From Candidatus Woesearchaeota archaeon (lineage in GTDB: Archaea > Nanobdellota > Nanobdellia > Nanobdellales > CAZNIQ01), in contig CAZNIQ010000002.1 of assembly GCA_964573185.1 (NCBI GenBank), positions 1 to 12,830 on the forward strand: a stretch of DNA of 12,830 bases, given 5' to 3'. Below, piece by piece: positions 1 through 12,830 of this stretch. The first letter of the stretch is position 1, and each line of letters starts with the position of its first letter. Below the pieces are notes generated by a model. That model searched no databases, was not told where the DNA came from, and saw nothing but the letters and a program-made list of their open reading frames with translations. Made by a program: the position numbers and the translations under genes.

Positions 1-408
1 ATCGTATGGTTTATCAGAAGCCCATTGATACCCACATTTTTTACATCTTTTAATTGAAGTATAATAAGGAATGAAACGATTATTTTCTAATAGGACACCA
101 TAATATCCAATTTCATCTGTAGTCAAATCTACTACATGCCCTTTAGTTGCAACAATTATAAGATATTTATCTCCAAGAGTTACCTCATAAACATCTAAAG
201 GACCGATTTTTCTATGAGTTGGTTTTCCAAAAAATGAAGCAATAGTTCTTGCTTTATTTGGGGATTCAACAATAAATAGAACAGTTTTAACAAGATCTTT
301 TACTTTTTCAGCTATTTTTCCCTCAAGAATCTCTTTTACTTTTTTTCTATCTTCTTCAATCTCTTTTTTTATTTCTTCAAGATTTATTTGATCAAAAGGA
401 ATAAACAT
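1..408 (-). CDS. rgy: Reverse gyrase, stand-alone topoisomerase-IA (Toprim) subunit; N-terminal 136 aa, continues past window start
   Basis: This ORF is absent from the ORF track because it is cut by the window edge. Hand translation from the ATG (complement of 406-408) gives [95 protein letters not shown]...[29 protein letters not shown] is the reverse-gyrase/TopA-type Toprim signature. A CxxC Zn-finger insert follows, as in reverse gyrases. The frame is open to position 1. Confidence 0.8.
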
Positions 409-414
409 AAAAAA

Positions 415-690
415 TTAGAAGACGTTTCTTGTAACTTCTGTTACCTCCGCGGACTGCACACCCCCAACTTTTTGTATCTCTTCTATTAACTTCTCTTCAT
501 TAAATTCTTGCTCTGGGTACATAAAAACTATGATTAACTTCTTTAAACCGAAAACAAACGGTTCTATTTTGTAATTTATAACTTTTCCACCTTGTTTTTC
601 AATTATCTTCACTACTTCTTCAGCAACTTTCTCCATATTAGTTTCTGGAGCTTCCGGTAAAACTTCTATTCTTATGAATACCTCACCCAT
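415..690 (-). CDS. ef1b: Translation elongation factor aEF-1 beta
   Basis: The 91-aa protein has the size and sequence pattern of archaeal EF-1beta (MGEV...IEVLPE...VEEV...IEPFVFGLKKL...VQSAEV). It sits immediately downstream of the Zn-ribbon gene that typically accompanies EF-1beta in archaea. Confidence 0.85.
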   Translation of the reverse strand: MGEVFIRIEVLPEAPETNMEKVAEEVVKIIEKQGGKVINYKIEPFVFGLKKLIIVFMYPEQEFNEEKLIEEIQKVGGVQSAEVTEVTRNVF

Positions 691-691
691 T

Positions 692-850
692 TTATGGTAA
701 TTCTAAGCCACACTTGGGACATTTGTATTTTACACCCATCTTTCTACATTTTGCACACCTTGCTATTTCTGTCCCGCAGTTCGGACACTTTAATATTACT
801 GAACCTACTTGATTTGTTATTGGGGTTCTACACGATACGCAGAAATACAT
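692..850 (-). CDS. Small Zn-ribbon protein (COG2888-like, translation-associated), 52 aa
   Basis: Hand translation gives MYFCVSCRTPITNQVGSVILKCPNCGTEIARCAKCRKMGVKYKCPKCGLELP*. It carries four CxxC pairs, enough for two zinc ribbons. It is below the ORF-track size cutoff. Only 1 nt separates it from the EF-1beta start, which is the conserved archaeal pairing. A TTAAAAA box lies at about -29 to -23 of the ATG. Confidence 0.7.
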   Translation of the reverse strand: MYFCVSCRTPITNQVGSVILKCPNCGTEIARCAKCRKMGVKYKCPKCGLELP

Positions 851-900
851 TTTACTTTCTTTAAGGAACTCTTTTTTAATTTTTCTTAAAAATAAAAGGG

Positions 901-1749
901 ATGGAAATAAAGTTAGAATATATCATTCTAGTAATAATCTTAGGATTTCTATTATTTCCATTTCTAAAAATGAATCAACAATACTCATGTAATAATGTAA
1001 AAGAGGTTTTTCTAAGTTTTTTAGAAAGAGCATTCAATAATTACACTGAGTTAAGCTATAAGATTGACTGTAAAGGGTCTTACGCTTTAGTAAACTTTAG
1101 TTTATATTTACCACAAAGATCTCTAGAAGTTTATGGGAACGTGTACATTATGAAAGATAAAATTTTCTATTCGTATTATGATGTGAACGAAAACAGAGTT
1201 ATAAGGTTAATAAAATTTGAGGAAAAATATAGAATCCCAAAAAGAAAAATAAATGAAATAATTTTAGGAGTTATGTCCTTCTGTCCGTTTGGAAATGAAG
1301 CTGAAAATAGGTTATTGCCCTTAATATCTAAATACTTGAATAAAACGAAATTCCAAATAGTATATATCATTTCAAAGACTTGTAATAATAAAACATTAGA
1401 ATGTTATAGATCTTTGCACGGACCGGAGGAGCTGTTGGAGGATATAAGGGAATATTGTGTATACCAATTATATGGATTTGAGAAATGGAAGAATTTTGTA
1501 TTAAAGATTAATAAAGAATGTACATTAGAAAATCTAAAAGACTGTTGGAAAAGAGTTGCAAAAGAAGCAAATTTAGATGTAAATGCTATAGAAAAATGTA
1601 TTAAAGAAAAAGGTGTTGAAATTGCAGAAAAGATGTACAATTTAACTGAAAAATACAAAATTTATGCTTCACCGACTTTAATAGTTAATGGTGTAAGGAT
1701 TGAAGGCTTAAGGGACTATACTAAAATACTTGAAGACCTATGGAAATAA
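901..1749 (+). CDS. Membrane-anchored DsbA/GILT-like thioredoxin-fold protein with a monothiol CPFG active-site position
   Basis: An N-terminal TM helix (YIILVIILGFLLFPFL) anchors the protein. The motif ILGVMSFCPFGNEAE sits where DsbA-type proteins carry CxxC after beta-1. SLHGPEELLEDIREYC resembles the GILT/DsbA-like xHGxxExxxxxxxxC segment. The C-terminal YASPTLIVNGVRIEG matches the cis-Pro/beta-strand motif of DsbA-family proteins. Confidence 0.55.
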   Translation: MEIKLEYIILVIILGFLLFPFLKMNQQYSCNNVKEVFLSFLERAFNNYTELSYKIDCKGSYALVNFSLYLPQRSLEVYGNVYIMKDKIFYSYYDVNENRVIRLIKFEEKYRIPKRKINEIILGVMSFCPFGNEAENRLLPLISKYLNKTKFQIVYIISKTCNNKTLECYRSLHGPEELLEDIREYCVYQLYGFEKWKNFVLKINKECTLENLKDCWKRVAKEANLDVNAIEKCIKEKGVEIAEKMYNLTEKYKIYASPTLIVNGVRIEGLRDYTKILEDLWK

Positions 1750-1876
1750 GGTAAGGACATTTTAAAGTTCTAAGATTACCTAATAAAAGAGTTGGTTATT
1801 AAACTTAGAGGAAAGACGAGTTTGTAATTGCAAGATAAATGTGAAGGGTTTAAAATTTAACTTATATATCAAACAA

Positions 1877-2038
1877 ATGGTATACGTCTGTAAAATTTGT
1901 GGATATAAGCATAAGGAAAGGGCAAACGTAAGAGCACATGTAAAAAGGGAACATATTAAGAAAGATCTTGAATTAAAAAGGAAATATAAATCAGGTGAAT
2001 TAAGAATACAAGATTTAATAGAGTACAAGAAAGAGTGA
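1877..2038 (+). CDS. Small C2H2 zinc-finger protein (53 aa from ATG 1877; ORF track extends to a GTG at 1841)
   Basis: CKICGYKHKERANVRAHVKREH has the classic Cx2Cx12Hx4H spacing. TTTAAAA lies at -28 to -22 of ATG 1877, which favours a leaderless start there. The stop overlaps the next gene's start in a GTGA arrangement. Confidence 0.55.
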   Translation: MVYVCKICGYKHKERANVRAHVKREHIKKDLELKRKYKSGELRIQDLIEYKKE

Positions 2039-2685
2039 CATGCTTTATTTTTGATCTAGATGGGACACTTGTAGATACTATACCGTTACATATCGAATCC
2101 GGATTGTACGCTTTAAGGAAATATGGATTGAATTTTGTTGATCCTAAAGATGTTCGTGATGAGATTGGAAAGTCTTTCCATGATATAGTTTTAGATATTT
2201 GTAGGAAATATAACATACCTATTTCTGAAGAATTAATTAAGGATATTTGGCAAATAAAACACCTATATTTTTTAAAGAATATTCATAAAGTTAAACTCTT
2301 GCCGGGCGTCCTAGAGTTACTAGAATTCTTAAGAAATAACCATAGTAAAATAGCTTTGGCATCTTCTTCTCCGAAAGATTCTGTAAAAGCAATTTTAGAT
2401 CATTTTAACCTATGGGGATATTTTGATGTTGTTTTGACTGCGGATGATGTATCAAAAGCAAAACCAGATCCTGAAATCTTTCTAAGAGCAAAAGAAAAAC
2501 TAGGATGTAATGATTGTATTGTAATTGAAGATTCTTTATACGGTGTCATAGCGGGTAAAAAAGCTGGTTGTAAAGTTTATGCAGTACTAACTGGTGTAGG
2601 TAAAAGAAAAGATTTGGAAAAATATGCTGATAAAGTTTTTAGAGATCTTACTGAGTTGCTTTCTTGGGTCTCAAAACAACTATAG
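2035..2685 (+). CDS. HAD-superfamily hydrolase, subfamily IA (beta-phosphoglucomutase/phosphatase-like)
   Basis: All four HAD motifs are present: [48 protein letters not shown]. The GTG start at 2035 overlaps the upstream TGA stop. Confidence 0.8.
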
Positions 2686-2890
2686 GTATTACTCCTTGTT
2701 CAAATTCCATTTTTGCAATCTCTATAGGATCATACCTTATTTTCTCTAAAGTTTCTTTATCTATTTTAATTAAAATTGGGGCACCCATTGCTATTTGTAA
2801 AGCTCTAGCACCGATAATTCTAGCTTTCTCAAACTTAGTTAAGTACTTATAATAATCGTTAGGAAATAGCATTTCCTTTTCTTTAGTCAT
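2648..2890 (-). CDS. rpoK: DNA-directed RNA polymerase subunit K (Rpo6)
   Basis: [25 protein letters not shown] is the signature of RpoK/Rpb6, and the 80-aa size fits. Confidence 0.9.
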
Positions 2891-2894
2891 AGTT

Positions 2895-3719
2895 TTAAAT
2901 ATTTATTCCAGCCTTTTTAGCTTCAACTCTCAAAATCTTCCTTATTTGCTCCGCTCTTTCTAAAGCAACATCAAATATATAATCTAGTTCCTCTAAAGTG
3001 AATGTTCCTCTTCCATATTTCTGTATAGCCCTAATCATCTTGTCTTCTGTAGAAGTTACAGTAATCATAGCATCTGAAGCTATTTCTTCTTCCTTTTTAG
3101 GATCTAAAATTATTTTTTCACCTACTTTTGCAAAAGTAACAGCTATAGGTAAATTCCTTATTGGTAATCTTTGGTCCGTATGTTCTTTATAATCTATTTT
3201 GTCTTTCTCGGGATCATATTTCGGAAATCTAGCATCTAGTAAAGCTGCTATGGCTGCCAAAGCGGAGGCATCATATACATTCCCATCATCATTCATTACA
3301 TAAATATCTAAGAAAATAACCCAAACTTTTTCCCCTTCCTTTATTACTAATTTATTTAGATCTATTGTCCTGCCTTCCCTTAACCCCCTATCAACTACTC
3401 TAGCTAATTCTATTGCTTCAGGTCCCGGAGGTCCGGGTTCGTAAGTTGGATAAGCTCCGGGTAACAATTCTGCTGAAACAACAAGAATACCTTCATCAGG
3501 AGTATCTGGAAAGGGTTCTCCGATTTCCATCTTAACTCCCGCCGCTACCACAGTTTTTCCCCATTGTACCATTGCGGAGCCTTCGGCGTTTTTTGAAACA
3601 CCAAAAGTAATAGTAATAGGTTTTCTATATTCCATAATTGCTCTACCATCAATTCTTTTTCCTTCTTTTATCAAATTTAGAATGTATTTTTTCGTATGAT
3701 CTAATAAACCCAAATCCAT
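2895..3719 (-). CDS. rrp42: Exosome complex component Rrp42 (RNase PH-like, inactive subunit)
   Basis: The protein is 274 aa. [67 protein letters not shown] matches the Rrp42 pattern, including the [11 protein letters not shown] segment, rather than the shorter Rrp41. Confidence 0.85.
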
Positions 3720-5032
3720 TATAGTTTTTCAACCAATTCTTTTATAAAGTTATAAAGCTTTGAAGAAATGATTCCTTTCCTGAATAATTCTTCGAATTTT
3801 TCAGATTCAACTACCATCTTCATTCCCTCTCTTTCTATTACATCTATTTCTAAATCAAAATACCTAATTCTCGTTCCAAAGATCTCTATTGGAGTATTAA
3901 TATTTATGTACTTAAATTTAAGATTTCCATCCTTTGAATAATAATAAACTTCATAATAAAATTCCCCTTCCTTGTATTTACATACAGCATAATCCCCGGG
4001 TTCTATAGGCAGGTTTAATTGATCGTAAGTTCCTCCAGGTTTGATAGGTCTTATAGTTTCCAAAACAAATTTGTTTTCAACTATCTTAATATCTTTCACA
4101 GCTTCTATTTTTTGATGAGATTTGTTCCAAGGCTTTAAATGCATTCTTATAACAGTTCCCCTTTCTTTTATCTTTTCAGCGTTTACTTCTAGAATTGTTT
4201 CCTCTACAAGTTCTCTAAGATTTGGATCTTTTTCTAAAATCTTTTCAGCTAAATCAACAATTATATTAAACGTTTTAGACGTTCTATATTCTAAATGTTT
4301 CCTTATTGTAGGTATAACTTTGTTTCTATATTCTTCTATCAATCTTTTTGAATGATATCCAAAATAAACTCTTGCTACGATTTTCTCTTCAAATTCTTTC
4401 TTTTCAAACTTTTCATATAACGCATCTATTTCTTTCTTAATATCTTCTATTTTAGCTTTTGCTGAAGAAGGTTTAAAATAAATTCCAAATCCTGGTTTTG
4501 CTTTTTCTTGAAGAACTTTCTCCAATTCTAACTGTCTTTCTTGAGGAATCTTGTTTGAAATGTTATGAAAACCACCTTTAATTATTATTACATATTTTCC
4601 CTCTAATCTTATCCTTGTTGTGAATCTTAAAGGTTCCTCTTCAACTATCTGAACAAACATCTCTTCCCCTTCTACCTCATTTATTGGTAATACTCCAACA
4701 CCATAATCCGTTTCAATTAAAGCCTCATTTTCTTTTTTCTCTATTAATTTTCCCTTTGTGATTACTCCTTTAATACTCACTAAAAAAATGCTATCCCAGA
4801 AATCTTCTTTAAAATCTGCTAACAAACGTAAAACTTTCCTTTTTTCACCTTTTACAATTATCCCTAATCTGTCAGGTGTATCATTAATTATTATATCTGG
4901 TTCCTCTTTGGATTTAATACCAAATCTCCGTTGCTGTTTTCTAGAAAGCTGTGTAACTTTATATCCCTTCTCTAAAAGATATTTTATTAAGCCCGTAGAG
5001 TAAATTCCTCTTACTTTAACCTTAATATCCAT
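3719..5032 (-). CDS. fau-1: FAU-1-like RNA-binding protein / probable ribonuclease (RNase E/G-like N-terminus plus DUF402 C-terminus)
   Basis: The N-terminus MDIKVKVRGIYSTGLIKYLLEKGYKV resembles the FAU-1 family start (VRGIY[AS]T.L). The C-terminal YININTPIEIFGTRIRYFDLEIDV resembles the DUF402 core. The stop overlaps the Rrp42 ATG in a TAATG arrangement. Confidence 0.6.
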   Translation of the reverse strand: MDIKVKVRGIYSTGLIKYLLEKGYKVTQLSRKQQRRFGIKSKEEPDIIINDTPDRLGIIVKGEKRKVLRLLADFKEDFWDSIFLVSIKGVITKGKLIEKKENEALIETDYGVGVLPINEVEGEEMFVQIVEEEPLRFTTRIRLEGKYVIIIKGGFHNISNKIPQERQLELEKVLQEKAKPGFGIYFKPSSAKAKIEDIKKEIDALYEKFEKKEFEEKIVARVYFGYHSKRLIEEYRNKVIPTIRKHLEYRTSKTFNIIVDLAEKILEKDPNLRELVEETILEVNAEKIKERGTVIRMHLKPWNKSHQKIEAVKDIKIVENKFVLETIRPIKPGGTYDQLNLPIEPGDYAVCKYKEGEFYYEVYYYSKDGNLKFKYININTPIEIFGTRIRYFDLEIDVIEREGMKMVVESEKFEELFRKGIISSKLYNFIKELVEKL

Positions 5033-5043
5033 AACATAAAAAA

Positions 5044-5277
5044 TTATTCGAGAGGTTTGATGACAGCAACCATGTCACCTCTTAGAAACACCCATTGTAA
5101 CTTTTCTGTAGAACCGTCGGATTTTACCTCTTCAGCATCAATCAATACAAGATTTGGATGCACATCCCAAGCAGCTAAAACCCCCCTATATACCTTGCCA
5201 TTTTTTAATTCTACTTGTATTTTCTTTCCTTTTGATTGGTTAATTACATCTAAGGGCCTGTTGATCTCCATCTTCAA
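5044..5277 (-). CDS. Sm-like (LSm/SmAP) protein
   Basis: The 77-aa protein has Sm1 (KKIQVELKNGKVYRGVLAAWDVHPNLVL) and Sm2 (VFLRGDMVAVI) motifs. Confidence 0.85.
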   Translation of the reverse strand: MKMEINRPLDVINQSKGKKIQVELKNGKVYRGVLAAWDVHPNLVLIDAEEVKSDGSTEKLQWVFLRGDMVAVIKPLE

Positions 5278-5302
5278 TTGAAACAGTATATAATTATAAA
5301 CC

Positions 5303-5698
5303 TTATTTTGCTTGTATCAATATACCGTTTACTGTACCATCCTGTCCCGGTCTTGAGGTTATTTTTACTAATCCTATATCTGTTTCTACAATAGCTCCTT
5401 TAGTTATTAATTGCATTCTTACAGCTTCTCTGTGTGCAGGGTTCTCTACAACTCTTATTATTTTTGCTTTAACGGATTTTCCTTGTTCTGGAATATAAAC
5501 ATTAACAAAATCTGTTCTTTTTACTCTTACTTTGTGATTACCACCCATTACTCTAATTATTTTTACTTCAAATTTATCAGAGACCTTAGTATTCGTAGGT
5601 TCCCTTCCTAATTCGTATTTCCTTTTCTTTCTCCACCATGATTTCTTTCCACCAGTAGCTTTTCTTTTATGCAAATCCCCCTGATAAGGATAAGCCAT
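5303..5698 (-). CDS. rps8e: 30S ribosomal protein S8e
   Basis: The N-terminus has the S8e-type HKRKATGGKK motif and the C-terminus has VKITSRPGQDG..NGILI. The size is 131 aa. TTTAAAAA lies about -28 to -21 of the ATG. Confidence 0.9.
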   Translation of the reverse strand: MAYPYQGDLHKRKATGGKKSWWRKKRKYELGREPTNTKVSDKFEVKIIRVMGGNHKVRVKRTDFVNVYIPEQGKSVKAKIIRVVENPAHREAVRMQLITKGAIVETDIGLVKITSRPGQDGTVNGILIQAK

Positions 5699-5721
5699 AA
5701 GACTTTACGGAAATATTATTT

Positions 5722-6066
5722 TTAAAGGATTTTCTCTTTCAAACTTTTTATCTCGTCTATCAATTTCTTCAAAATATCAATCATTCTAAGATACTCTTCT
5801 TTTAATACCTTTATTTCTTTTAAAGTAGAATATACTACTTCTTCTTTATTTAATAAAAAATCTTCTAGCTCTCTACCATTTAAAATCAAAATTTCATCAA
5901 ATAAATTCTCTCTATAGGCTTTTTCAATTGTTTTTACAAAATTTACAAAATCAAAATCATTTTCTAAATCTATCTCTTTCCTAAAATAAATTATCAGTTT
6001 ATTTTTCTTTTTTTCAATTTTTTTAACAACATTTTCAGTATGTTCAGGAGGAATTATAATTGCCAT
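5722..6066 (-). CDS. Hypothetical protein, 114 aa, predicted coiled-coil C-terminus
   Basis: This is a long ORF with a K/E/L-rich heptad-like C-terminal tail (LKEIKVLKEEYLRMIDILKKLIDEIKSLKEKIL). TTATAAA lies at -29 to -23 of the ATG. I recognise no family. Confidence 0.5.
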   Translation of the reverse strand: MAIIIPPEHTENVVKKIEKKKNKLIIYFRKEIDLENDFDFVNFVKTIEKAYRENLFDEILILNGRELEDFLLNKEEVVYSTLKEIKVLKEEYLRMIDILKKLIDEIKSLKEKIL

Positions 6067-6096
6067 TATTATGGAAGTTCTTATTTTCGTTTATAA

Positions 6097-6160
6097 GTTT
6101 TTGTCAGCAGCTACTCCGGTCATCATTCTTCAGGGGGTGCTCACCTACATCATCCAAAGC
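6097..6160 (-). ncRNA. C/D box sRNA (2'-O-methylation guide)
   Basis: The minus strand reads gcuuugg-AUGAUGU(C, 6153-6147)-AGGUGAGCACCCC(13 nt)-CUGA(D', 6133-6130)-aga-AUGAUGA(C', 6126-6120)-CCGGAGUAGCUG(12 nt)-CUGA(D, 6107-6104)-caaaaac. The box order, 12-13 nt spacers and 3-nt D'-C' linker are canonical for archaeal C/D sRNAs. The island is locally GC-rich (31/60 hand-counted at 6101-6160) in an AT-rich genome. Confidence 0.8.
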
Positions 6161-6170
6161 TTTTATATAT
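6161..6170 (+). promoter_or_regulatory. TATA-like box (TTTTATATAT) for the plus-strand peptidase gene
   Basis: The box is centred about 25 nt upstream of ATG 6189, consistent with a leaderless archaeal transcript. Confidence 0.35.
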
Positions 6171-6177
6171 TTTCCAA

Positions 6178-6185
6178 TTTTAAAT
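6178..6185 (-). promoter_or_regulatory. TATA-like box (minus strand ATTTAAAA) for the C/D box sRNA
   Basis: The box is centred about 23-25 nt upstream of the predicted sRNA 5' end (about 6156-6160). The same TTTAAA motif recurs upstream of other minus-strand units in the window. Confidence 0.35.
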
Positions 6186-6188
6186 CTA

Positions 6189-6917
6189 ATGCTCGAAATA
6201 CCGTTCTTATTAATAATGTCTATTGAGGATTTTCTTAAAAAGGATGTTCATGATTTTCTTATTTATTCATTCTTATTTTATTCTTTTCTAAAATTTTTAT
6301 CGAATTTTTCCTTAAATTTCTCTCTTTTACTTGCATTATTCTTCATTATTTTCTTTTTAATAGGATATTTTAAAAGATTATGGGCTATAGGTGATTTATA
6401 TATTTTTATCTCAATTTCACTATTATTGTATACTTTCCAAGATCCCTTAATTTACTTATATTTTATAATTTCTCTTTCTATATCTCTTATTATCTTTTCT
6501 CTCTTTTATTTCTTAATCTTCATTAGAAAAATAAAAATAAATAAAAAAGATCTTCTATATTTTTTGTTCTCAATACCTTTGTTTTTTATAAACATTAAGT
6601 TAGCTGCTCTGCTTCTTTTGGCAATTCTAGCTTTCATTCTTTATAAAGAAAATCAGATGATTTTTGAAAGAAAACCAGAAGAATTAGTAGAAGGAGACTG
6701 GGTTGCAGAGGATATTATAGTTAATGGAAAAATTGTTATAAGTAAAAATAATCCGGGTTTAACAAAAAAGGATATTGAGTTTTTGAAAAAATTGTATAAA
6801 CAAGGTAAAATAAAGAAAATAAAGGTTATAGAAGGTATACCAATGGTTCCAGCTATATTTATTGCATATCTTCTAACGATCCTTCTTAAAAATAAAGTTC
6901 TTTATTTAATCCTATGA
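6189..6917 (+). CDS. A24-family prepilin/preflagellin peptidase-like polytopic membrane protein
   Basis: It is a multi-TM protein. The N-terminal LLIMSIEDFLKKDVHDF resembles the first catalytic-Asp motif of archaeal FlaK/PibD (..YYDlk.reipd). LWAIGDLYIF resembles the GxGD second Asp motif. The soluble C-terminal insert plus final TM (EGIPMVPAIFIAYLL) resembles archaeal A24 C-terminal domains. I place the start at ATG 6189, not the track's TTG at 6060. Confidence 0.6.
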   Translation: MLEIPFLLIMSIEDFLKKDVHDFLIYSFLFYSFLKFLSNFSLNFSLLLALFFIIFFLIGYFKRLWAIGDLYIFISISLLLYTFQDPLIYLYFIISLSISLIIFSLFYFLIFIRKIKINKKDLLYFLFSIPLFFINIKLAALLLLAILAFILYKENQMIFERKPEELVEGDWVAEDIIVNGKIVISKNNPGLTKKDIEFLKKLYKQGKIKKIKVIEGIPMVPAIFIAYLLTILLKNKVLYLIL

Positions 6918-7945
6918 AGGTACTTGAATTAGATAAGGATTATGCAAAAATAAAAATTACAGATTTCGAGGATTTATGGATACTTTATACTATCCTAGAT
7001 AAAAATACTTGCGTTGCTGGGCAGACTTATAGAGTTATAAAAGGTGAGGGGAAAAAAGAAAAAGTAAAAGTTTGGTTAAAAATAAAAGTAGAGGAAGCTA
7101 AGTTTGATGAATTGACTAAAAGCTTAAAAATAAGGGGAAAAATAATAGAAGGGCCAGAGGATATTCCCAAGGGCTATCATACTTTTGATATAAATGTTGG
7201 AAGTATTATTGAGATTTATAAGGAGTTTGATAAAGAAGAGATAAATGAACTATTAAAATCTGAGAAAGAAAAAGATAAAATTTTATTAATATCATTTGAT
7301 AATTATGAATGCGCGATAGCATTGATATCTAACTTTGATTATCAGCTATTAGATTATTTTGAATCTGAAATTTCTAAAGAAAATTATGAAAATGAGAAAT
7401 TACAATATTATTCAAAAATATATCAAAAAATAAAAGAGTATAGCGAAAAATACAATGTTAAATTGATAATTTTAGCTTCACCTATATTTTGGAAAAATGA
7501 TTTGCTAGAATACATAAAAAAGAAAGATCCAGAATTGATAAAGAAAATAAGGTTAATGGATATCTCCTATGGGGGAGAACATGGGATTAGAGAAGCTTTA
7601 AGGAGAAAAGAATTCTTGAGAATAATAGAAGAATTTGAGGTTTCAAAAATAAATGATATTTTTCAAGAATTTTTATATAGATTGTCCAAAGGAGAAAGAA
7701 TCGCGTATGGATATGAAAATGTTAAAATAGCTATAGATTCAAATGCTGTAGAAAAAATATTAATAACTGAAGATTTTATATATAAAGCTTGGAGAGAAGA
7801 TTTTATTAATGAATTAAAAAATTATATAAAAAAGGCAAGAAGGCAAAAAGCAGAAGTTTTTTTCGTAAGAAAGGGTTTCGAAAATTATGATATGATACAA
7901 AAATTGGGAGGGATAATAGCTTTATTAAGGTTCGACATATTTTAG
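6914..7945 (+). CDS. pelA: Pelota (Dom34 homolog), ribosome rescue / no-go decay factor
   Basis: The protein is 343 aa. The N-terminus has FEDLWILYTIL and a following TYRV segment, and the C-terminal eRF1-like domain ends GGIIALLRF. The ATGA start overlaps the stop of the upstream gene. Confidence 0.85.
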   Translation: MKVLELDKDYAKIKITDFEDLWILYTILDKNTCVAGQTYRVIKGEGKKEKVKVWLKIKVEEAKFDELTKSLKIRGKIIEGPEDIPKGYHTFDINVGSIIEIYKEFDKEEINELLKSEKEKDKILLISFDNYECAIALISNFDYQLLDYFESEISKENYENEKLQYYSKIYQKIKEYSEKYNVKLIILASPIFWKNDLLEYIKKKDPELIKKIRLMDISYGGEHGIREALRRKEFLRIIEEFEVSKINDIFQEFLYRLSKGERIAYGYENVKIAIDSNAVEKILITEDFIYKAWREDFINELKNYIKKARRQKAEVFFVRKGFENYDMIQKLGGIIALLRFDIF

Positions 7946-7948
7946 TAT

Positions 7949-8815
7949 ATGCGAATCTGGGCTTTCTTCATAATACTAGCATTTGTTTTCTTAGCAATGG
8001 TTTTAGTGATACCGTTAAAATATAAAGAACAGTTAATAGGAGAGAAGCTGATACAAACTAATAATACGACTACAAAAGAACTAGTTTTTTACAAATACTC
8101 TACTGAAAATATTCTTTTAACAAAGGAATATTACAAAGTTACTTTATTAGAAAACTATACTGTTAAATTTAAGAAAGTTCTAACTGAAAGAAAAATAATA
8201 GAATTATATGCCGATATTTTTGATTCTTCTAAAAGATGCTTTGAAACGAATTGCGAATATAAAGTTCTGGAGGGTACTGTTGTTAAGGAGGATAACAAAA
8301 TCTGTGTTCCAATTCCAAAAAATCCTTTCCAAAGAAATTATGCTAAAGTTGAAATTCTATGCTATTCTTACGAAAAACCTGCTTTAAAATTTTATTTAGA
8401 TCTTGGAGGCTACATAACATTGAATATACAATCAGACATCAACTCTTGTTATTTAAAAATTGGAAATCAAATGTATTATTTATCTCCTTGTTCTAAAGAG
8501 CTTAATACATTTTTAGAAAAAGCCGAGATAGAGTTAATACCTGAAAGTGAAGGTACTATAAAAGAACTATCGATCAAAACAAAATTAATAGGAGGCAAAT
8601 ATTACAGATTTTTTAGTGTAGATGAGGGAAAATATAGAATTATTATAGCAGTTCAGACAGGGAAAATAAAAGTTCTGTTAGATAATGTGTTTTTAGGAGA
8701 AACAGATGGTGTTCTTTCAAAGGAAGTAATGCTAAGTTCAGGTACTCACGTTATAGAGATCATTCCTGAAAGTGAAATGGTATTTATAAGGAAAATCGTC
8801 ATTGAAAAAATATGA
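7949..8815 (+). CDS. Hypothetical N-terminally membrane-anchored, Cys-containing extracellular protein (288 aa)
   Basis: The protein starts MRIWAFFIILAFVFLAMVLVIPL, a single N-terminal hydrophobic helix. The body is beta-rich, with 7 Cys and N-x-T sequons. The gap to Pelota is 3 nt and the stop overlaps the next ATG. I recognise no family. Confidence 0.6.
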   Translation: MRIWAFFIILAFVFLAMVLVIPLKYKEQLIGEKLIQTNNTTTKELVFYKYSTENILLTKEYYKVTLLENYTVKFKKVLTERKIIELYADIFDSSKRCFETNCEYKVLEGTVVKEDNKICVPIPKNPFQRNYAKVEILCYSYEKPALKFYLDLGGYITLNIQSDINSCYLKIGNQMYYLSPCSKELNTFLEKAEIELIPESEGTIKELSIKTKLIGGKYYRFFSVDEGKYRIIIAVQTGKIKVLLDNVFLGETDGVLSKEVMLSSGTHVIEIIPESEMVFIRKIVIEKI

Positions 8816-10086
8816 GAGGCTTAATAGGGATAATTTTTACTTTAATATTACTAGTAGCTCTTGTGGCTGGTGCTTTTATAATATTACCAAAAATTGCTAG
8901 TTGGGTCAGCGGTACTACCGAAAAACATTTGATATATAATCCCAGAACAGCCGAAAGGATTGGAAAAATTCTTTCAACGTTTCAAAAAGCCTTTGAACCT
9001 GCTATAAAAGCTTGGGAGTGTTTAAATGATCCCGAGAAATGTTATGAATCTCCTTTTGAGAACGTAAGATCCGTAGAATATGAAGAGGTAATTAAAAGAA
9101 ATTACGGTATTCATTTGGAGTATCTAAAAACGCAACCTGTTGTAATGTATTGTAATAATAAAACTGTAATTTACAACGGAACTTTGCATGACCCTGGATG
9201 CTCCGCAACACCTCTAATTCTCCAAATCCCATTAAAAATAAGTGTTCCTGAGACTACTGAAATAAAAATAAAAATTACAGGTAATACTTATTGTCCCATA
9301 TTTAAAGTATATCAAAACGATATTAAATGTTCTGAAGAAAAATTAACTGTTCATAGTTTTTGGAGTGGTGTTATAACGTGTACCATTCCTTTTAACAAGG
9401 ATTTCTGGAAAAGCTGTAAGAGCCATTGCTATTGGGATACCGAAGAGTGTCCTGAAAACGAGAAATGTGATTGTGACTTAAAATATGCTGAATTAAAATT
9501 ATATTATGAAGAACCTGAAATAAAGGTAAGAGTTTATTACAATGCTAGCACGAAAGCAGATTATTGGTTAATCATTACAAAAGAACCGATTTTACCAGAA
9601 GATTTCTTTAAGTATTATCAATTACCAATGTCAAAATACGCTGTATCAAGATATACTGGGCTGAACGGTCTAGTCCCAGCAATATCCACATTAACGGATT
9701 TACCAGTATTTCCACAAGGATATCCTTTCTACGTGTTCATAGTTCTAAGGAAGAATGATAAAATTGATAAAATAGGGAACTTGGTTATAACTTTCGAGAA
9801 TGTTAAATGTGAAGCTATAGAAGATATATCGTTACCTAAAGATTTGGGAGTAAAATACGCTAAAATAAAAGTTTCAGACGGATGTCAAATAAAAATTTCA
9901 GGAGATTTTACAAAAATTGTAAACATTTTAAACGATAAAGAAGAATTTGTATTTGGTATAAAATTAAATCCCAAAGTAGAGAATGCGGATTATAAAGAAA
10001 TACATATAATTACTATAGTAGATTACGTAGCTTATAAAGAGCAGAAGGTGACAGGAAAAGTAAACGTTATATTTACGAAAACATAA
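8812..10086 (+). CDS. Hypothetical Cys-rich exported protein with a class III (type IV pilin-like) signal peptide (424 aa)
   Basis: The N-terminus MRG/LIGIIFTLILLVALVAGAFIIL fits the archaeal prepilin pattern [KR]-G-[hydrophobic] followed by a helix of about 20 aa. The protein has about 16 Cys, including the cluster CKSHCYWDTEECPENEKCDC. I recognise no family. Confidence 0.6.
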   Translation: MRGLIGIIFTLILLVALVAGAFIILPKIASWVSGTTEKHLIYNPRTAERIGKILSTFQKAFEPAIKAWECLNDPEKCYESPFENVRSVEYEEVIKRNYGIHLEYLKTQPVVMYCNNKTVIYNGTLHDPGCSATPLILQIPLKISVPETTEIKIKITGNTYCPIFKVYQNDIKCSEEKLTVHSFWSGVITCTIPFNKDFWKSCKSHCYWDTEECPENEKCDCDLKYAELKLYYEEPEIKVRVYYNASTKADYWLIITKEPILPEDFFKYYQLPMSKYAVSRYTGLNGLVPAISTLTDLPVFPQGYPFYVFIVLRKNDKIDKIGNLVITFENVKCEAIEDISLPKDLGVKYAKIKVSDGCQIKISGDFTKIVNILNDKEEFVFGIKLNPKVENADYKEIHIITIVDYVAYKEQKVTGKVNVIFTKT

Positions 10087-10096
10087 ATAAAGAACT

Positions 10097-11002
10097 ATGA
10101 GAAAATATCTTCCTTTGTTGCTAACAGCAATATTATTTACCTTGGGATGCCCTCAAATGCAAAAAGCAAGCGCTCAAAATGTTCAACCACAAGCACAATG
10201 TAGCTTGGCACCAGGGCAAGGAGTAATAGTTCAACCTTTAGGAGGAGTTCCAACGGAGTTCTATAGTGGAAATGTATATCCTTTAGTATTTTCTATCATT
10301 AACGATGGAGGTGCAGATGCTGTAATAAAAAAAGTCTGTATAAGCGGTATTTCACCCGATTATATTTCTGAAATAAGAATAGGTTCTACTTCTGGTTCGG
10401 GTCCTTGTATAGAAACTAACATTCCTTTATCTGGTAAAAAAGTTATAGCAGGAAATATAATACCTGGCAATCAAACAGAACTAGAATTAACCTTAGACTT
10501 CAAAGATTTAACATCCGATTATACTGCTACAGGTGTTGTAGATGTTGTATATCAATATTCTACTGATGCTTTTATAGAGTTCTGTGCTGCAAGTCCTATA
10601 AGCAAGCAACCCGCATGTACTCCTGGAGAAGTAAGATCTATATGCGTTTCAGGAGGTCCCATTCAAATACAGGATGTAAAAGTTAACTGCTTACCTAGCG
10701 GAAAAGTTTATGTAACAATCAAGCTTATAGCAAATAATATATACACTGAAGGAACCGTTCCGAAAATACAATATGAAGTTTCGACAGAAGGTTTTGGGGA
10801 TGTTACTCCAGAATGTACTCCTCGTAATGAAATCACTGTTGGAAGCGATGGAACTGCTACTATAATGTGTACAATAGACTTATCAAAATATCAGGATTCT
10901 TACAAAAAAGGTTTCATTGGAAAATTAAAGTTGCACTTTATATATGATGCAGAAAGCACATATACGTTTCCTGTGAAGGTAATCTATGTCCCGCAATCTT
11001 AA
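10097..11002 (+). CDS. Hypothetical exported protein with a lipobox-like signal (LFTLGC); tandem beta-sandwich-like; paralog of the next gene (301 aa)
   Basis: The signal is MRKYLPLLLTAILFTLGC. VFSIINDGGADAVIKKVCISG resembles the first strands of CARDB-type/Ig-like adhesion domains. The protein has 10 Cys and is G/S/T/P/Q/V-rich. Its DNA is visibly more GC-rich than the neighbouring genes. Confidence 0.65.
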   Translation: MRKYLPLLLTAILFTLGCPQMQKASAQNVQPQAQCSLAPGQGVIVQPLGGVPTEFYSGNVYPLVFSIINDGGADAVIKKVCISGISPDYISEIRIGSTSGSGPCIETNIPLSGKKVIAGNIIPGNQTELELTLDFKDLTSDYTATGVVDVVYQYSTDAFIEFCAASPISKQPACTPGEVRSICVSGGPIQIQDVKVNCLPSGKVYVTIKLIANNIYTEGTVPKIQYEVSTEGFGDVTPECTPRNEITVGSDGTATIMCTIDLSKYQDSYKKGFIGKLKLHFIYDAESTYTFPVKVIYVPQS

Positions 11003-11843
11003 ATTCTTAATTTTTCTATTTATCTCTTTGACTTTAACGTTAGGATGTGTTATTTCTACTGAAAGTAAAAAAGAAAAATCATTGAGCATACACCAAATTG
11101 GATTAAAAATAGATGTTTTAAACTACAAACCTGTAATAGTTATCCCTACAAATGAAATGGGGATTAATTTAAAGTTAAAAGTGAGAAGTGAAGGGGTAGA
11201 ACCTTCTAAAGTTATAATCTGTATAGCAGGAACTCCTTATGGTTTTACTGGAAAGAGATGTGTTGAAAAAATAATATTACCGAAATATGACTATTTCTTT
11301 ACGATACCGCAAGATGGACAAATAATTTTAAGAAGACCTGTTAGTAAAACTGAAGCAGATATAAGGTTAAAAGCCTGTTATAACTTTACAACTCTTGTTA
11401 ATTTTGAATTGTGCATAGGAAAAGATTGTACTTCTTATGTAAAGTATAATTATAATAAAACGAAAGTATTTCCAATAGATGTAACAAGTATTTCTCTAGG
11501 AGCGATCTCTGAAGAAGGAAATTATGATATATATTATATTACTGTATCTTTAAAGAAAAATGTTAAGGGTTTCTTGATAAAGGATTTAGAGAAATGTGCT
11601 AGGGAGATGTATTATCCAAAAGAAGGAAAAGTTCGTATAGAAGTTCTAACAAGAACTAAAAAGATTATTACGCATTGTGAGGACGTATCCCTATTAACTG
11701 AAGGAGAAACAAGCTGCATAATTAAAGTTCCCAAAGAATATGAAGACGTTCACTTTTGGATACCAATGCAAATAAAACTAAGTTACAATCTTTTAGAAAT
11801 CTTAAAAGTTCCTGTAACGATTGTACCTTTAAAATCAGAGTAA
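10986..11843 (+). CDS. Hypothetical exported protein with a lipobox-like signal (LTLTLGC); diverged paralog of the previous gene (285 aa)
   Basis: The signal is MSRNLKFLIFLFISLTLTLGC. Several motifs line up in order with the upstream protein: KVIICIAG vs KKVCISG, ACYNFTTLVNFELC vs YQYSTDAFIEFC, FPIDVTSISL vs GPIQIQDVKV, and VPVTIVP vs FPVKVIY. It overlaps the upstream gene by 17 nt. Confidence 0.65.
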   Translation: MSRNLKFLIFLFISLTLTLGCVISTESKKEKSLSIHQIGLKIDVLNYKPVIVIPTNEMGINLKLKVRSEGVEPSKVIICIAGTPYGFTGKRCVEKIILPKYDYFFTIPQDGQIILRRPVSKTEADIRLKACYNFTTLVNFELCIGKDCTSYVKYNYNKTKVFPIDVTSISLGAISEEGNYDIYYITVSLKKNVKGFLIKDLEKCAREMYYPKEGKVRIEVLTRTKKIITHCEDVSLLTEGETSCIIKVPKEYEDVHFWIPMQIKLSYNLLEILKVPVTIVPLKSE

Positions 11844-11941
11844 TCCAGGGTCTTCACTGATCATGGGGGAGCGGCTCATCATTGTAGCCCCGCCGGAGGA
11901 TCGGTGGTCATAGGTCCCACCGACCACGGCAGCGGGGCTAG
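11831..11941 (-). ncRNA. Composite guide sRNA: H/ACA-type hairpin directly followed by a C/D box unit
   Basis: On the minus strand the lower stem is AGCCCCGC (11939-11932) with GCGGGGCU (11893-11886). The pocket strands are UGCCGUGG (11931-11924) and UCCUCCG (11900-11894). The upper stem is UCGGUGG (11923-11917) with CCACCGA (11907-11901), closed by the loop GACCUAUGA. ACA follows at 11885-11883. Directly after it come C box AUGAUGA (11882-11876), spacer GCCGCUCCCCC (11 nt), D' AUGA (11864-11861), linker UCA, C' GUGAAGA (11857-11851), spacer CCCUGGAUUACU (12 nt), D box CUGA (11838-11835) and UUUU (11834-11831). G+C is 53/80 by hand count at 11861-11940. Confidence 0.7.
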
Positions 11942-11960
11942 AAATTATTTTTCTTCTAGA

Positions 11961-11970
11961 TTTAAATTTT
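11961..11970 (-). promoter_or_regulatory. TATA-like box (minus strand AAAATTTAAA) upstream of the composite sRNA
   Basis: TTTAAA falls at about -26 to -21 relative to the first nucleotide of the lower stem (11940). It overlaps the stop codon of the upstream minus-strand ORF. Confidence 0.3.
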
Positions 11971-12429
11971 ATGCTCTAACCAATATAATTTATTAGAATG
12001 TGCCAATAACGCTTTTGCTTTTTCTTTAGAATGCACTTCTATCTCACATTTATCGAAAAAGGATTTTAGAGCTTCCTTATCTTCTTCTTTAAATTCAAAG
12101 TTCGTTACAAAATAAAAAACATCATTTTCTGTGATGACTTTAATATATCTTTGTGGTTCGAACTCTAAAATAGAAAATAATTGCAGATCATAATCTGTTT
12201 TAATTAAAGCGTGTATAACTTTCCTATCTTCTGTTAAAGTATGATAAACGAATCCCACATAATAAGGGAGCTTTGAAAATTTGTTTCCAAAAATCAGTTT
12301 GTAATAATACATTTCATAATCATATAGGGATATAGTATTTTTATTTCTCTCAGAAATTATTATTGCAAAAACTTTATTTGGAAAATCCGGGTGCTGCTTT
12401 ATTCTTCTGATTTCTTCTGCTCCTTCCAT
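11962..12429 (-). CDS. Hypothetical protein (155 aa)
   Basis: This is a long ORF on the same strand as S6e, directly downstream of it. I recognise no motifs. The annotated ATG overlaps the S6e 3' end by 31 nt, so the true start is uncertain. Confidence 0.5.
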   Translation of the reverse strand: MEGAEEIRRIKQHPDFPNKVFAIIISERNKNTISLYDYEMYYYKLIFGNKFSKLPYYVGFVYHTLTEDRKVIHALIKTDYDLQLFSILEFEPQRYIKVITENDVFYFVTNFEFKEEDKEALKSFFDKCEIEVHSKEKAKALLAHSNKLYWLEHKI

Positions 12430-12800
12430 TTTTTGTAATACTCTTCAAAGGGAGTAGGTCCATATTCTACAACTTTTGTGTTAATTTGTACTATCTCTTC
12501 TGAAATAGTATTTCCCCTAACTAATTTTTTAACTCTCGTTCTTTTATCCTCCCACCACCAAATATATTTTTTTCCAGTTCCTTCTATTCCCTTAACCATT
12601 GGAAATCCTGCAAAATCCGAACCCCCTGTAATTTCTAATTTATATCCGGGCATACCTACCCATTCTCCAGGTATGATATCCCCTATTTTCTTTCCTAGAA
12701 ATCTTTTAGCGTCATCTCCTTTTACCTCTACTTGAAAAGCTAATCCTGTTTTAGGATCAGAAATTACTACTTTGAACGCTACTTCTGTAATCTTAGGCAT
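12399..12800 (-). CDS. rps6e: 30S ribosomal protein S6e
   Basis: ISDPKTG...FLGKKIGDII.G...G.PGYKLEITGGSDFAGFPM is the S6e signature. The size is 133 aa. TTTAAAA lies at -27 to -21 of the ATG. Confidence 0.9.
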   Translation of the reverse strand: MPKITEVAFKVVISDPKTGLAFQVEVKGDDAKRFLGKKIGDIIPGEWVGMPGYKLEITGGSDFAGFPMVKGIEGTGKKYIWWWEDKRTRVKKLVRGNTISEEIVQINTKVVEYGPTPFEEYYKKWKEQKKSEE

Positions 12801-12830
12801 AAGTCTTTTATTTGATAAAATTTTAAAATA

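Follow-up and report, generated by a model that had tools for sequence, protein, structure and literature searches.

The window analysed here is a 12,830-nucleotide (nt) stretch of DNA from a Candidatus Woesearchaeota archaeon (contig CAZNIQ010000002.1, positions 1 to 12,830), and the element in question is a minus-strand island rich in guanine and cytosine (GC) that appears to carry two RNA-modification guides in tandem. The GC content of the whole window is 30%. When GC islands are scored as 40 nt with at least 55% GC, the longest GC-rich stretch is this island, 11835-11953, across which the local GC fraction is 0.48-0.59. About 108 nt of it are occupied by an H/ACA guide (11939-11883), a complete C/D box small RNA (sRNA; 11882-11835), and then a run of four U residues. 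The spacer between the two modules is 0 nt, since the ACA ends at 11883 and the C box begins at 11882. Read on the minus strand, the order is UAGCCCCGCU GCCGUG GUCGGUGG GACCUAUGA CCACCGAU CCUCC GGCGGGGCU ACA for the H/ACA part and AUGAUGA GCCGCUCCCCC AUGA UCA GUGAAGA CCCUGGAUUACU CUGA UUUU for the C/D part. The strand was assigned as minus because of the G·U pairs, the ACA, the orientation of the kink-loop (K-loop) and the C/D boxes. A 118-nt stretch folds with an energy of -43.8 kcal/mol (z = -3.4), and none of 200 shuffled sequences folds equally well. An earlier note, made from the letters alone, had described both modules; every H/ACA and C/D element it listed is present where it placed them, and both modules look like real guide RNAs that abut without a spacer. 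The best explanation, to which we assign a probability of roughly 0.7, is that the island is one small transcription unit with two independent guides for ribosomal RNA (rRNA) modification in tandem.

The genes around the island set its context. On the minus strand, the gene for ribosomal protein S6e (12399-12800) precedes an open reading frame (ORF) designated ORF155 (11962-12429), a lineage-restricted gene that lies 3' of S6e and directly upstream of the hairpin. From the other side, a convergent plus-strand ORF of 285 amino acids (aa; 10986-11843), whose N-terminus resembles a signal peptide, runs into the island and overlaps the 3' end of the sRNA unit by its final 13 nt. Its stop codon, TAA, occupies 11841-11843. 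With its end at 11843, the ORF thus has its final codons and stop opposite the D box, the U-run and 3 nt of the D guide, an antisense overlap that the earlier note had correctly pointed out.

By its sequence, the first module (11939-11883) has the canonical form of an archaeal H/ACA guide with one hairpin. The hairpin layout first proposed (AGCCCCGC / UGCCGUGG / UCGGUGG / GACCUAUGA / CCACCGA / UCCUCCG / GCGGGGCU / ACA) was confirmed, but its internal loop of 8 and 7 nt had been drawn one pair too wide on each side; the pairs G11924·U11900 and U11931·G11894 narrow the pocket to 6/5 nt. The lower stem is formed by AGCCCCGCU (11931-11939) and GGCGGGGCU (11886-11894), giving nine pairs with a U·G pair at the top. 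The 6-nt 5' guide strand of the pocket, GCCGUG, lies at 11925-11930 and the 5-nt 3' guide strand, CCUCC, at 11895-11899. Between them, GUCGGUGG (11917-11924) pairs with CCACCGAU (11900-11907) to make the upper or "GA" stem, in which G11924 closes the pocket with U11900. The K-loop GACCUAUGA (11908-11916), the presumed L7Ae site, has a 5' GA and a 3' GA flanking the stem as tandem sheared G·A pairs, in the same orientation as the kink-turns (K-turns) in the Nanoarchaeum equitans H/ACA sRNA sequence. The ACA box (11883-11885) is 14 nt 3' of the pocket-closing pair. The published structural model requires a GA stem of ten layers and expects the ACA 14-15 nt from the closing pair; a "10/5/9" productive fold was defined for Pyrococcus and Pyrobaculum guides (Toffano-Nioche 2015, PMC4652768). 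The eight pairs and two G·A pairs of the upper stem make ten stacked layers, and with its 5-nt 3' guide and 9-bp lower stem the refolded hairpin fits 10/5/9. Its dimensions also lie within the ranges for archaeal H/ACA guides: 7-9 bp in the lower stem, 5-8 nt in the 5' guide and 5-6 nt in the 3' guide.

The hairpin recurs downstream of the S6e-ORF155 pair in two further nanoarchaeal lineages: an NCBI metagenome-assembled genome (MAG), GCA_054017035.1 (L028), and Logan SRR26701689 (L033), with S6e proteins 91% and 70% identical to that of the window, respectively. The order S6e, ORF155, H/ACA is kept in both, and the distance from the ORF155 stop to the hairpin is 4-22 nt across the three lineages. 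A covariance model, R1, built from the window and L028 scores L028 at 89.7 bits and L033 at 39.8 bits (E = 3e-8); over ~270 kb of fetched archaeal loci it found no hairpin beyond the window, L028 and L033. When the three are aligned by structure, 96% of cells are paired and 7 of the 17 pairs have changed on both sides (4 of 9 in helix 1, 3 of 8 in helix 2), which is the stem covariation that the earlier note had proposed to look for. These values are reached by 0-1 of 500 shuffles, and slid registers are only 31-60% paired. The lower stem of L033 (UCCCCUACU/AGUAGGGGG) is nearly wholly rewritten relative to the window. The 3' pocket strand CCUCC does not change in any of the three lineages; the 5' strand is identical in L028 and reads GCCAUG (G to A) in L033. 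The ACA is invariant and lies 14 nt from the closing pair in each. The ten layers of the GA stem are shared by L028, and the K-loop ends, GA...AUGA, are kept in L028 (GAUAAAUGA) and L033 (GAUCCAUGA) around an interior that varies. Pattern scans for more H/ACA orthologues found none in viral contigs and, in metagenomes, just the window's own JGI contig and two chance matches. In the S6e-homologue contigs P0002, P0004, P0005, P0013, P0022, P0126 and P0127, synteny is lacking or the contig ends too early.

Targets were sought in proxy rRNAs, the H. marismortui operon (L038, with 16S, 23S and 5S located with Rfam) and the E. coli operon (L039). The strings predicted for the organism itself are GGAGGUGCAUGGC in its 16S rRNA for the H/ACA pocket and GGGGGAGCGGC and AGUAAUCCAGGG for the C/D guides. 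Across the 16S, 23S and 5S rRNAs of H. marismortui, the 6/5 pocket fits just one site without a mismatch: 16S U991, in GGAGG-U-G-CAUGGC, the counterpart by alignment of helix-34 U1052 in E. coli. As expected for an H/ACA guide, the complementarity lies on both sides of an unpaired 5'-UN-3': GCCGUG is complementary to CAUGGC, and CCUCC to the GGAGG directly 5' of the target U. The L033 variant, GCCAUG, makes 11 of 11 Watson-Crick pairs with the helix-34 site, and the sole pocket substitution among the lineages turns a G·U into an A-U pair opposite the same target U, keeping the pairing. An equally good site is reached by 10 of 3000 composition-matched shuffled guides. The flanking helix-34 sequence of 72 nt was found at 100% identity in 13 haloarchaeal replicons. 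The predicted target U would adjoin C1054 of the decoding site. It is probably the site guided by Pab19 of Pyrococcus, which guides modification of P. abyssi 16S U1017 in vitro (Muller et al. 2008). The wider 8/7 pocket of the earlier note had led to a different expected target, CGGAGGA-U-N-CCACGGCA, which did not hold up: its best sites in the H. marismortui and E. coli rRNAs carry 2-3 mismatches, and the 6/5 pocket was adopted instead. A placement of the pocket arms on 16S ~1180-1197 (GGAGGA...CCACGGCA) was dropped, as the 9-nt gap there is non-canonical and contains no U.

The second module, 11882-11835, is by its box architecture a complete C/D box sRNA, and its 11- and 12-nt guides and 3-nt linker follow the N. 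equitans pattern. An archaeal RNA of this class is expected to have C (RUGAUGA) and D (CUGA) boxes, internal C'/D' boxes and guides of ~12 nt that pair with rRNA or tRNA over at least 9-10 bp under the N+5 rule. The C box AUGAUGA (11876-11882) starts with the first nt after the ACA. It is followed by the 11-nt D' guide GCCGCUCCCCC (11865-11875), the D' box AUGA (11861-11864; a CUGA variant also present in N. equitans sRNA4 and sRNA12), the linker UCA (11858-11860), the C' box GUGAAGA (11851-11857), which is common among N. equitans sRNAs, the 12-nt D guide CCCUGGAUUACU (11839-11850) and the D box CUGA (11835-11838). This four-box pattern arose in 0 of 2000 Markov-shuffled windows. The search for targets of the guide elements, suggested in the earlier note, succeeded for the H/ACA pocket and not for the two C/D guides, which reach 1-2 mismatches at best. 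The best proxy match of the D' guide, H. marismortui 16S 868 (GGGGGAGCACC), equivalent to E. coli 925-935, has only 8 contiguous pairs; those of the D guide have 1-2 mismatches, for example at H. marismortui 23S 328 (CGUGAUACAGGG). Tentatively, the leading candidate for the D' guide is 16S 925-935 (GGGGGAGC..., helix 28), and that for the D guide is 23S ~320 (..GAUACAGGG). Compared with one tRNA, tRNA-Arg, the guides show 3 mismatches, and they have no match in the window sequence. They match 0 of the 26 published N. equitans C/D sRNAs. The cores GCCGCU and CCUGGAU are common to the window C/D unit and N. equitans sRNA23, and 48 of 5000 shuffles match equally well. Homology with sRNA23 was rejected: the shared cores are marginally above chance, other sRNAs share equally long words, and the D' guide of sRNA23 fits 23S helix 71, whereas the window guide does not. 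A D-guide target in 16S helix 43 (AGUAAUC) was likewise given up when the pattern GGAGGTGCATGGC N{270,300} AGTAATCCAGGG found nothing in the metagenome collection.

Several features speak to how the two modules are transcribed. TTTAAA at 11961-11966 on the minus strand, a candidate archaeal box A/TATA element, is located at -27 to -22 from the first hairpin nt and overlaps the stop codon of ORF155. Boxes of A and T lie at a like distance in L028 (TTAAAA, -26 to -21) and L033 (TTTATT, -28 to -23). N. equitans promoters carry TTTAAA 26 nt upstream of the start, including that of its H/ACA sRNA (Randau 2012, PMC3491384). A promoter for the C/D unit would sit in the GC-rich 3' half of the hairpin. 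No T-run separates the ACA from the C box in the window or in L033, and the U5 run of L033 comes only after the D box. Because the spacer is 0 nt (2 nt in L033), the promoter zone is GC-rich and the first T-run follows box D, the two modules probably belong to one transcription unit, for the whole of which the U4 run (11831-11834) is a candidate archaeal termination signal. Most likely the C/D unit would be made by read-through to the U-run, with transcription starting at the H/ACA promoter or coming in as part of the S6e-ORF155 mRNA from upstream; the two sources seem equally possible.

The C/D partner is not the same in the relatives. L033 also has a tandem of H/ACA and C/D, with a 2-nt spacer, but its C/D unit, AUGAUGU-AGGUGGCAUGACU-CUGA-UCU-GUGAUGA-GGGAGGUGAGAG-CUGA, is a homologue of N. 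equitans sRNA13. L028 has no C/D unit at this position; a convergent PfkB gene begins directly after the ACA. Everything 3' of the ACA differs among the window, L028 and L033, and in each the synteny stops precisely where the H/ACA gene does, at its 3' end. Since the partner is different or absent across the lineages, the H/ACA gene is the stable element and the C/D unit looks like a rider at a synteny breakpoint. Mobile, promoter-less C/D sRNAs located at split genes and rearranged sites have been described in N. equitans (Randau 2012, PMC3491384), and dicistronic C/D arrangements have been published for Pyrobaculum. The sRNA13 homologue of L033 lies at 955-1004 (plus strand), with guide cores AGGUGGC and GGAGGUGA; in N. 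equitans, sRNA13 has its own promoter and no H/ACA neighbour.

In eukaryotes, composite small Cajal body-specific RNAs (scaRNAs) such as U85 combine C/D and H/ACA domains in one RNA and guide both kinds of modification. In these the C/D domain typically encloses the H/ACA domain, the RNAs act on small nuclear RNAs in Cajal bodies, and the link between the domains is stable and conserved. In archaea, few cases of an H/ACA motif followed by a C/D motif have been published, among them those of Pyrococcus and Sulfolobus, to which this locus is a nanoarchaeal addition; the earlier note, which called the architecture unusual for archaea, overstated its novelty. Pyrococcus Pab21/Pf1 consists of an H/ACA motif with a C/D motif on its 3' side and gives long and short forms on Northern blots (PMC2377435). 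It resembles the locus in its single H/ACA hairpin, K-loop, ACA and complete C/D unit on the same strand, but the target of Pab21 is 16S U891 and that of the locus the helix-34 U. An Rfam scan of the locus gave nothing at gathering thresholds. The best match below threshold, RF00065 (snoR9), scores 24.3 bits where the gathering score is 90; the locus therefore shares the architecture of RF00065 without being a sequence member. Model positions 1-128 align end to end with 11939-11821, a span that takes in the hairpin, the ACA and all four C/D boxes, and the printed consensus likewise shows a hairpin, ACA and C/D boxes, with a 5-nt spacer after the ACA as against 0 nt in the locus. From this consensus, RF00065 probably models the Pab21 RNA.

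In the Sulfolobales, the H/ACA motifs of Sso1/Sso-159, Sto1/sR4 and Sac1/sR39 are "directly flanked" on the 3' side by C/D motifs, and a common transcript of ~120 nt was seen on Northern blots together with a short H/ACA form (Muller et al. 2009, PMC2651775). These H/ACA guides direct pseudouridine 35 of pre-tRNA-Tyr, whereas the predicted target of the locus is in 16S rRNA; their C/D partner is conserved in three species with the same 23S target, whereas that of the locus changes between relatives. P. abyssi Pab19 and P. furiosus Pfu19 probably share the predicted target nucleotide of the locus, the U of the helix-34 UGC in 16S rRNA (U1017 in P. abyssi). The pocket of Pab19 is oversized, its 5' guide being 15 nt long, and the RNA has an additional stem-loop on its 5' side and a spacer model of 3 nt that is not canonical; the locus is compact, with a canonical 6/5 pocket. 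The earlier note had mentioned a dual C/D-H/ACA sRNA from N. equitans, but the set described there, 26 C/D sRNAs and one 159-nt two-hairpin H/ACA sRNA (Randau 2012, PMC3491384), holds no composite and nothing that matches this locus. Like the window unit, N. equitans C/D sRNAs use AUGA as a D' variant and GUGAAGA as a C' box, and their terminal stem is all but absent. They have no promoters of their own and ride on other genes, as in tRNA-C/D dicistrons. The N. equitans K-turns share the ..CCUAUGA.. context of the locus, but the H/ACA sRNA differs in its two hairpins and in its pockets, and the published set contains no guide for the helix-34 site.

If the island is a tandem of independent guides, the following mechanism can be proposed. 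The K-loop of the H/ACA module would bind L7Ae, its lower stem and ACA would bind Cbf5-Nop10-Gar1, and its 6/5 pocket would pair with 5'-GGAGG-U-G-CAUGGC-3' of 16S helix 34 to place a pseudouridine at the equivalent of E. coli U1052. The C/D module would assemble with L7Ae, Nop5 and fibrillarin and direct two 2'-O-methylations. Having no room for its own promoter, it would depend on read-through as far as the U-run that follows box D. If the Pyrococcus and Sulfolobus precedents are a guide, a composite of ~108 nt and separated RNAs may coexist. The pairing of the two modules would be opportunistic rather than obligatory, with a conserved H/ACA gene and a varied C/D unit, or none, at its 3' end. 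The anatomy, the covariation, the conservation of the pocket, its unique complementarity to a proxy archaeal 16S rRNA and the variable partner are observed, and from them we infer expression, co-transcription, processing, protein partners and the modification itself. Several points count against the proposal. The covariation statistics are thin, with the hairpin in three lineages only, and the GA stem of L033 counts 9 layers instead of 10, a third G·A-type pair among them. The H/ACA target was assigned with a haloarchaeal proxy, relying on helix 34 being strongly conserved, and the equation of P. abyssi U1017 with E. coli U1052 is based on the UGC context rather than on an alignment. As a promoter, what can be pointed to is A/T hexamers in a genome of 70% A+T. 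For neither C/D guide did the H. marismortui and E. coli rRNAs yield a convincing target, no orthologue of the window's C/D sRNA was found, and its box architecture is what speaks for its function.

The features of the junction can be read in other ways. Were the ~108-nt RNA to remain intact as an obligate bifunctional guide, it would form a single scaRNA-like composite ribonucleoprotein that coordinates neighbouring rRNA modifications during ribosome assembly. L7Ae is used by both H/ACA and C/D modules, which would suit such a particle, as would the zero spacer between ACA and box C, the second tandem in L033, and the long H/ACA+C/D forms that accumulate in Pyrococcus and Sulfolobus. The same precedents, however, include short forms with H/ACA alone; the partner is wholly different in L033 and absent in L028 while the H/ACA pocket is constant; and no C/D target near helix 34 was found in the proxy rRNAs. 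We consider obligate coupling unlikely. The opposite extreme is that the H/ACA guide alone is functional and the C/D unit, a recently inserted or decaying mobile element at a rearrangement breakpoint, has no current target. The missing rRNA and tRNA targets in the proxies and the missing orthologue would then be explained, and the break of synteny at the H/ACA 3' end in all three lineages resembles the situation in N. equitans, where split genes and rearranged sites harbour mobile C/D sRNAs (Randau 2012, PMC3491384). But decay is hard to reconcile with four boxes and spacings that are all intact, and since the proxy rRNAs come from distant organisms, a missing match weighs little. The C/D unit of L033, moreover, keeps guide cores matching N. 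equitans sRNA13, indicating that riders can be functional. This makes a targetless C/D unit quite unlikely in our estimation. The position of the hairpin, 4-22 nt past the ORF155 stop in every lineage, would also suit a structural 3' untranslated region or terminator element of the S6e-ORF155 mRNA, with its guide-like features a coincidence. Archaeal termination uses T-runs, not hairpins. In a stability hairpin with covarying stems one would not expect an unchanging internal loop, a GA/GA K-loop and an ACA kept at 14 nt, nor a perfect match to helix 34, and such an element is very improbable.

Within the preferred reading, two independent guides in tandem, the 3' end of the H/ACA gene might serve as a reusable docking site. 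Mobile C/D units would have been captured independently behind the helix-34 guide in sister nanoarchaeal lineages, borrowing its promoter and perhaps L7Ae-nucleated assembly. We offer this tentatively, as a possibility that is more doubtful than not; if it were true, the Pyrococcus and Sulfolobus composites would be products of the same "hitch-hiking" route of C/D sRNA gene birth. What is new here is modest: a putative canonical guide for the helix-34 U beside C1054, and an apparent exchange of C/D partners between sister lineages. Nanoarchaeota join, as a third archaeal lineage, the few in which H/ACA-then-C/D composite genes are listed. Each half evolves on its own, with the pseudouridine guide fixed along with its target and the methylation guide swapped or lost, which bears on the origin and movement of promoter-less C/D sRNA genes in reduced genomes. 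A pseudouridine is predicted beside C1054 of the decoding site in the nanoarchaeal ribosome, probably at a site common to Pyrococcus, and model R1 can be used for annotating the helix-34 guide in Nanoarchaeota MAGs.

Further C/D sRNAs were noted in the window and in related loci. A free-standing one, GGAUGAUGU AGGUGAGCACCCC CUGA AGA AUGAUGA CCGGAGUAGCUG CUGA, is located at 6104-6153 (minus strand) of the window, in a GC island between a 114-aa gene and a PepC-like gene. Its D guide has 10 nt (GGAGUAGCUG) in common with N. equitans sRNA14. A TTG-start ORF called at 6060 overlaps it, and the start was probably mis-called. Outside the window, C/D sRNAs occur in flanking regions at 1703-1750 (minus) of locus L001 and at 1827-1875 (minus) and 380-428 (plus) of L028. 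A pair between the NOG1 and metallophosphatase genes in L001 and L028 looks orthologous, with guides that have partly diverged; a tRNA-Arg(TCG) gene lies near the L001 sRNA, at 2393-2467. In L034, a close relative of N. equitans whose S6e clusters with NEQ105 at 90% identity or more, both guides of N. equitans sRNA23 are unchanged at 7390-7438 (minus), and further C/D sRNAs lie at 6882-6930 (plus) and 2277-2326 (minus). The D' guide of sRNA23, AAGCCGCUACU, makes 11 of 11 Watson-Crick pairs with AGUAGCGGCUU in the helix-71 region of H. marismortui 23S rRNA (1999-2009 of the operon sequence L038). As a candidate target this site is more conserved than 23S-285, the one that the original paper predicted.

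The window contig is also found in metagenome data (ENA ERZ27262635, JGI 3300026488 and Logan SRR7968109). Besides S6e, its encoded proteins include ribosomal protein S8e, Pelota and an RNase PH-family protein. The closest named relatives of its S6e are those of Nanopusillus and Nanobsidianus, at ~60% identity, and the representative of the N. equitans S6e cluster is 61% identical to it, which makes the source an uncultured nanoarchaeon other than N. equitans Kin4-M. Pfam has no match for ORF155 and its AlphaFold model is unusable (mean pLDDT, the predicted local distance difference test score, 39). In homologue searches the ORF155 family occurred in three nanoarchaeal lineages only, always between the S6e and H/ACA genes (11962-12429, minus, in the window; 4372-4845 in L028; 441-893 in L033). 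The 285-aa ORF that converges on the island has an adjacent, overlapping companion of 301 aa at 10097-11002 (plus). Neither has a Pfam match above threshold, and both are missing from the equivalent position in L028. Their signal-peptide-like N-termini end in LGC, which suggests secreted or lipid-anchored proteins.

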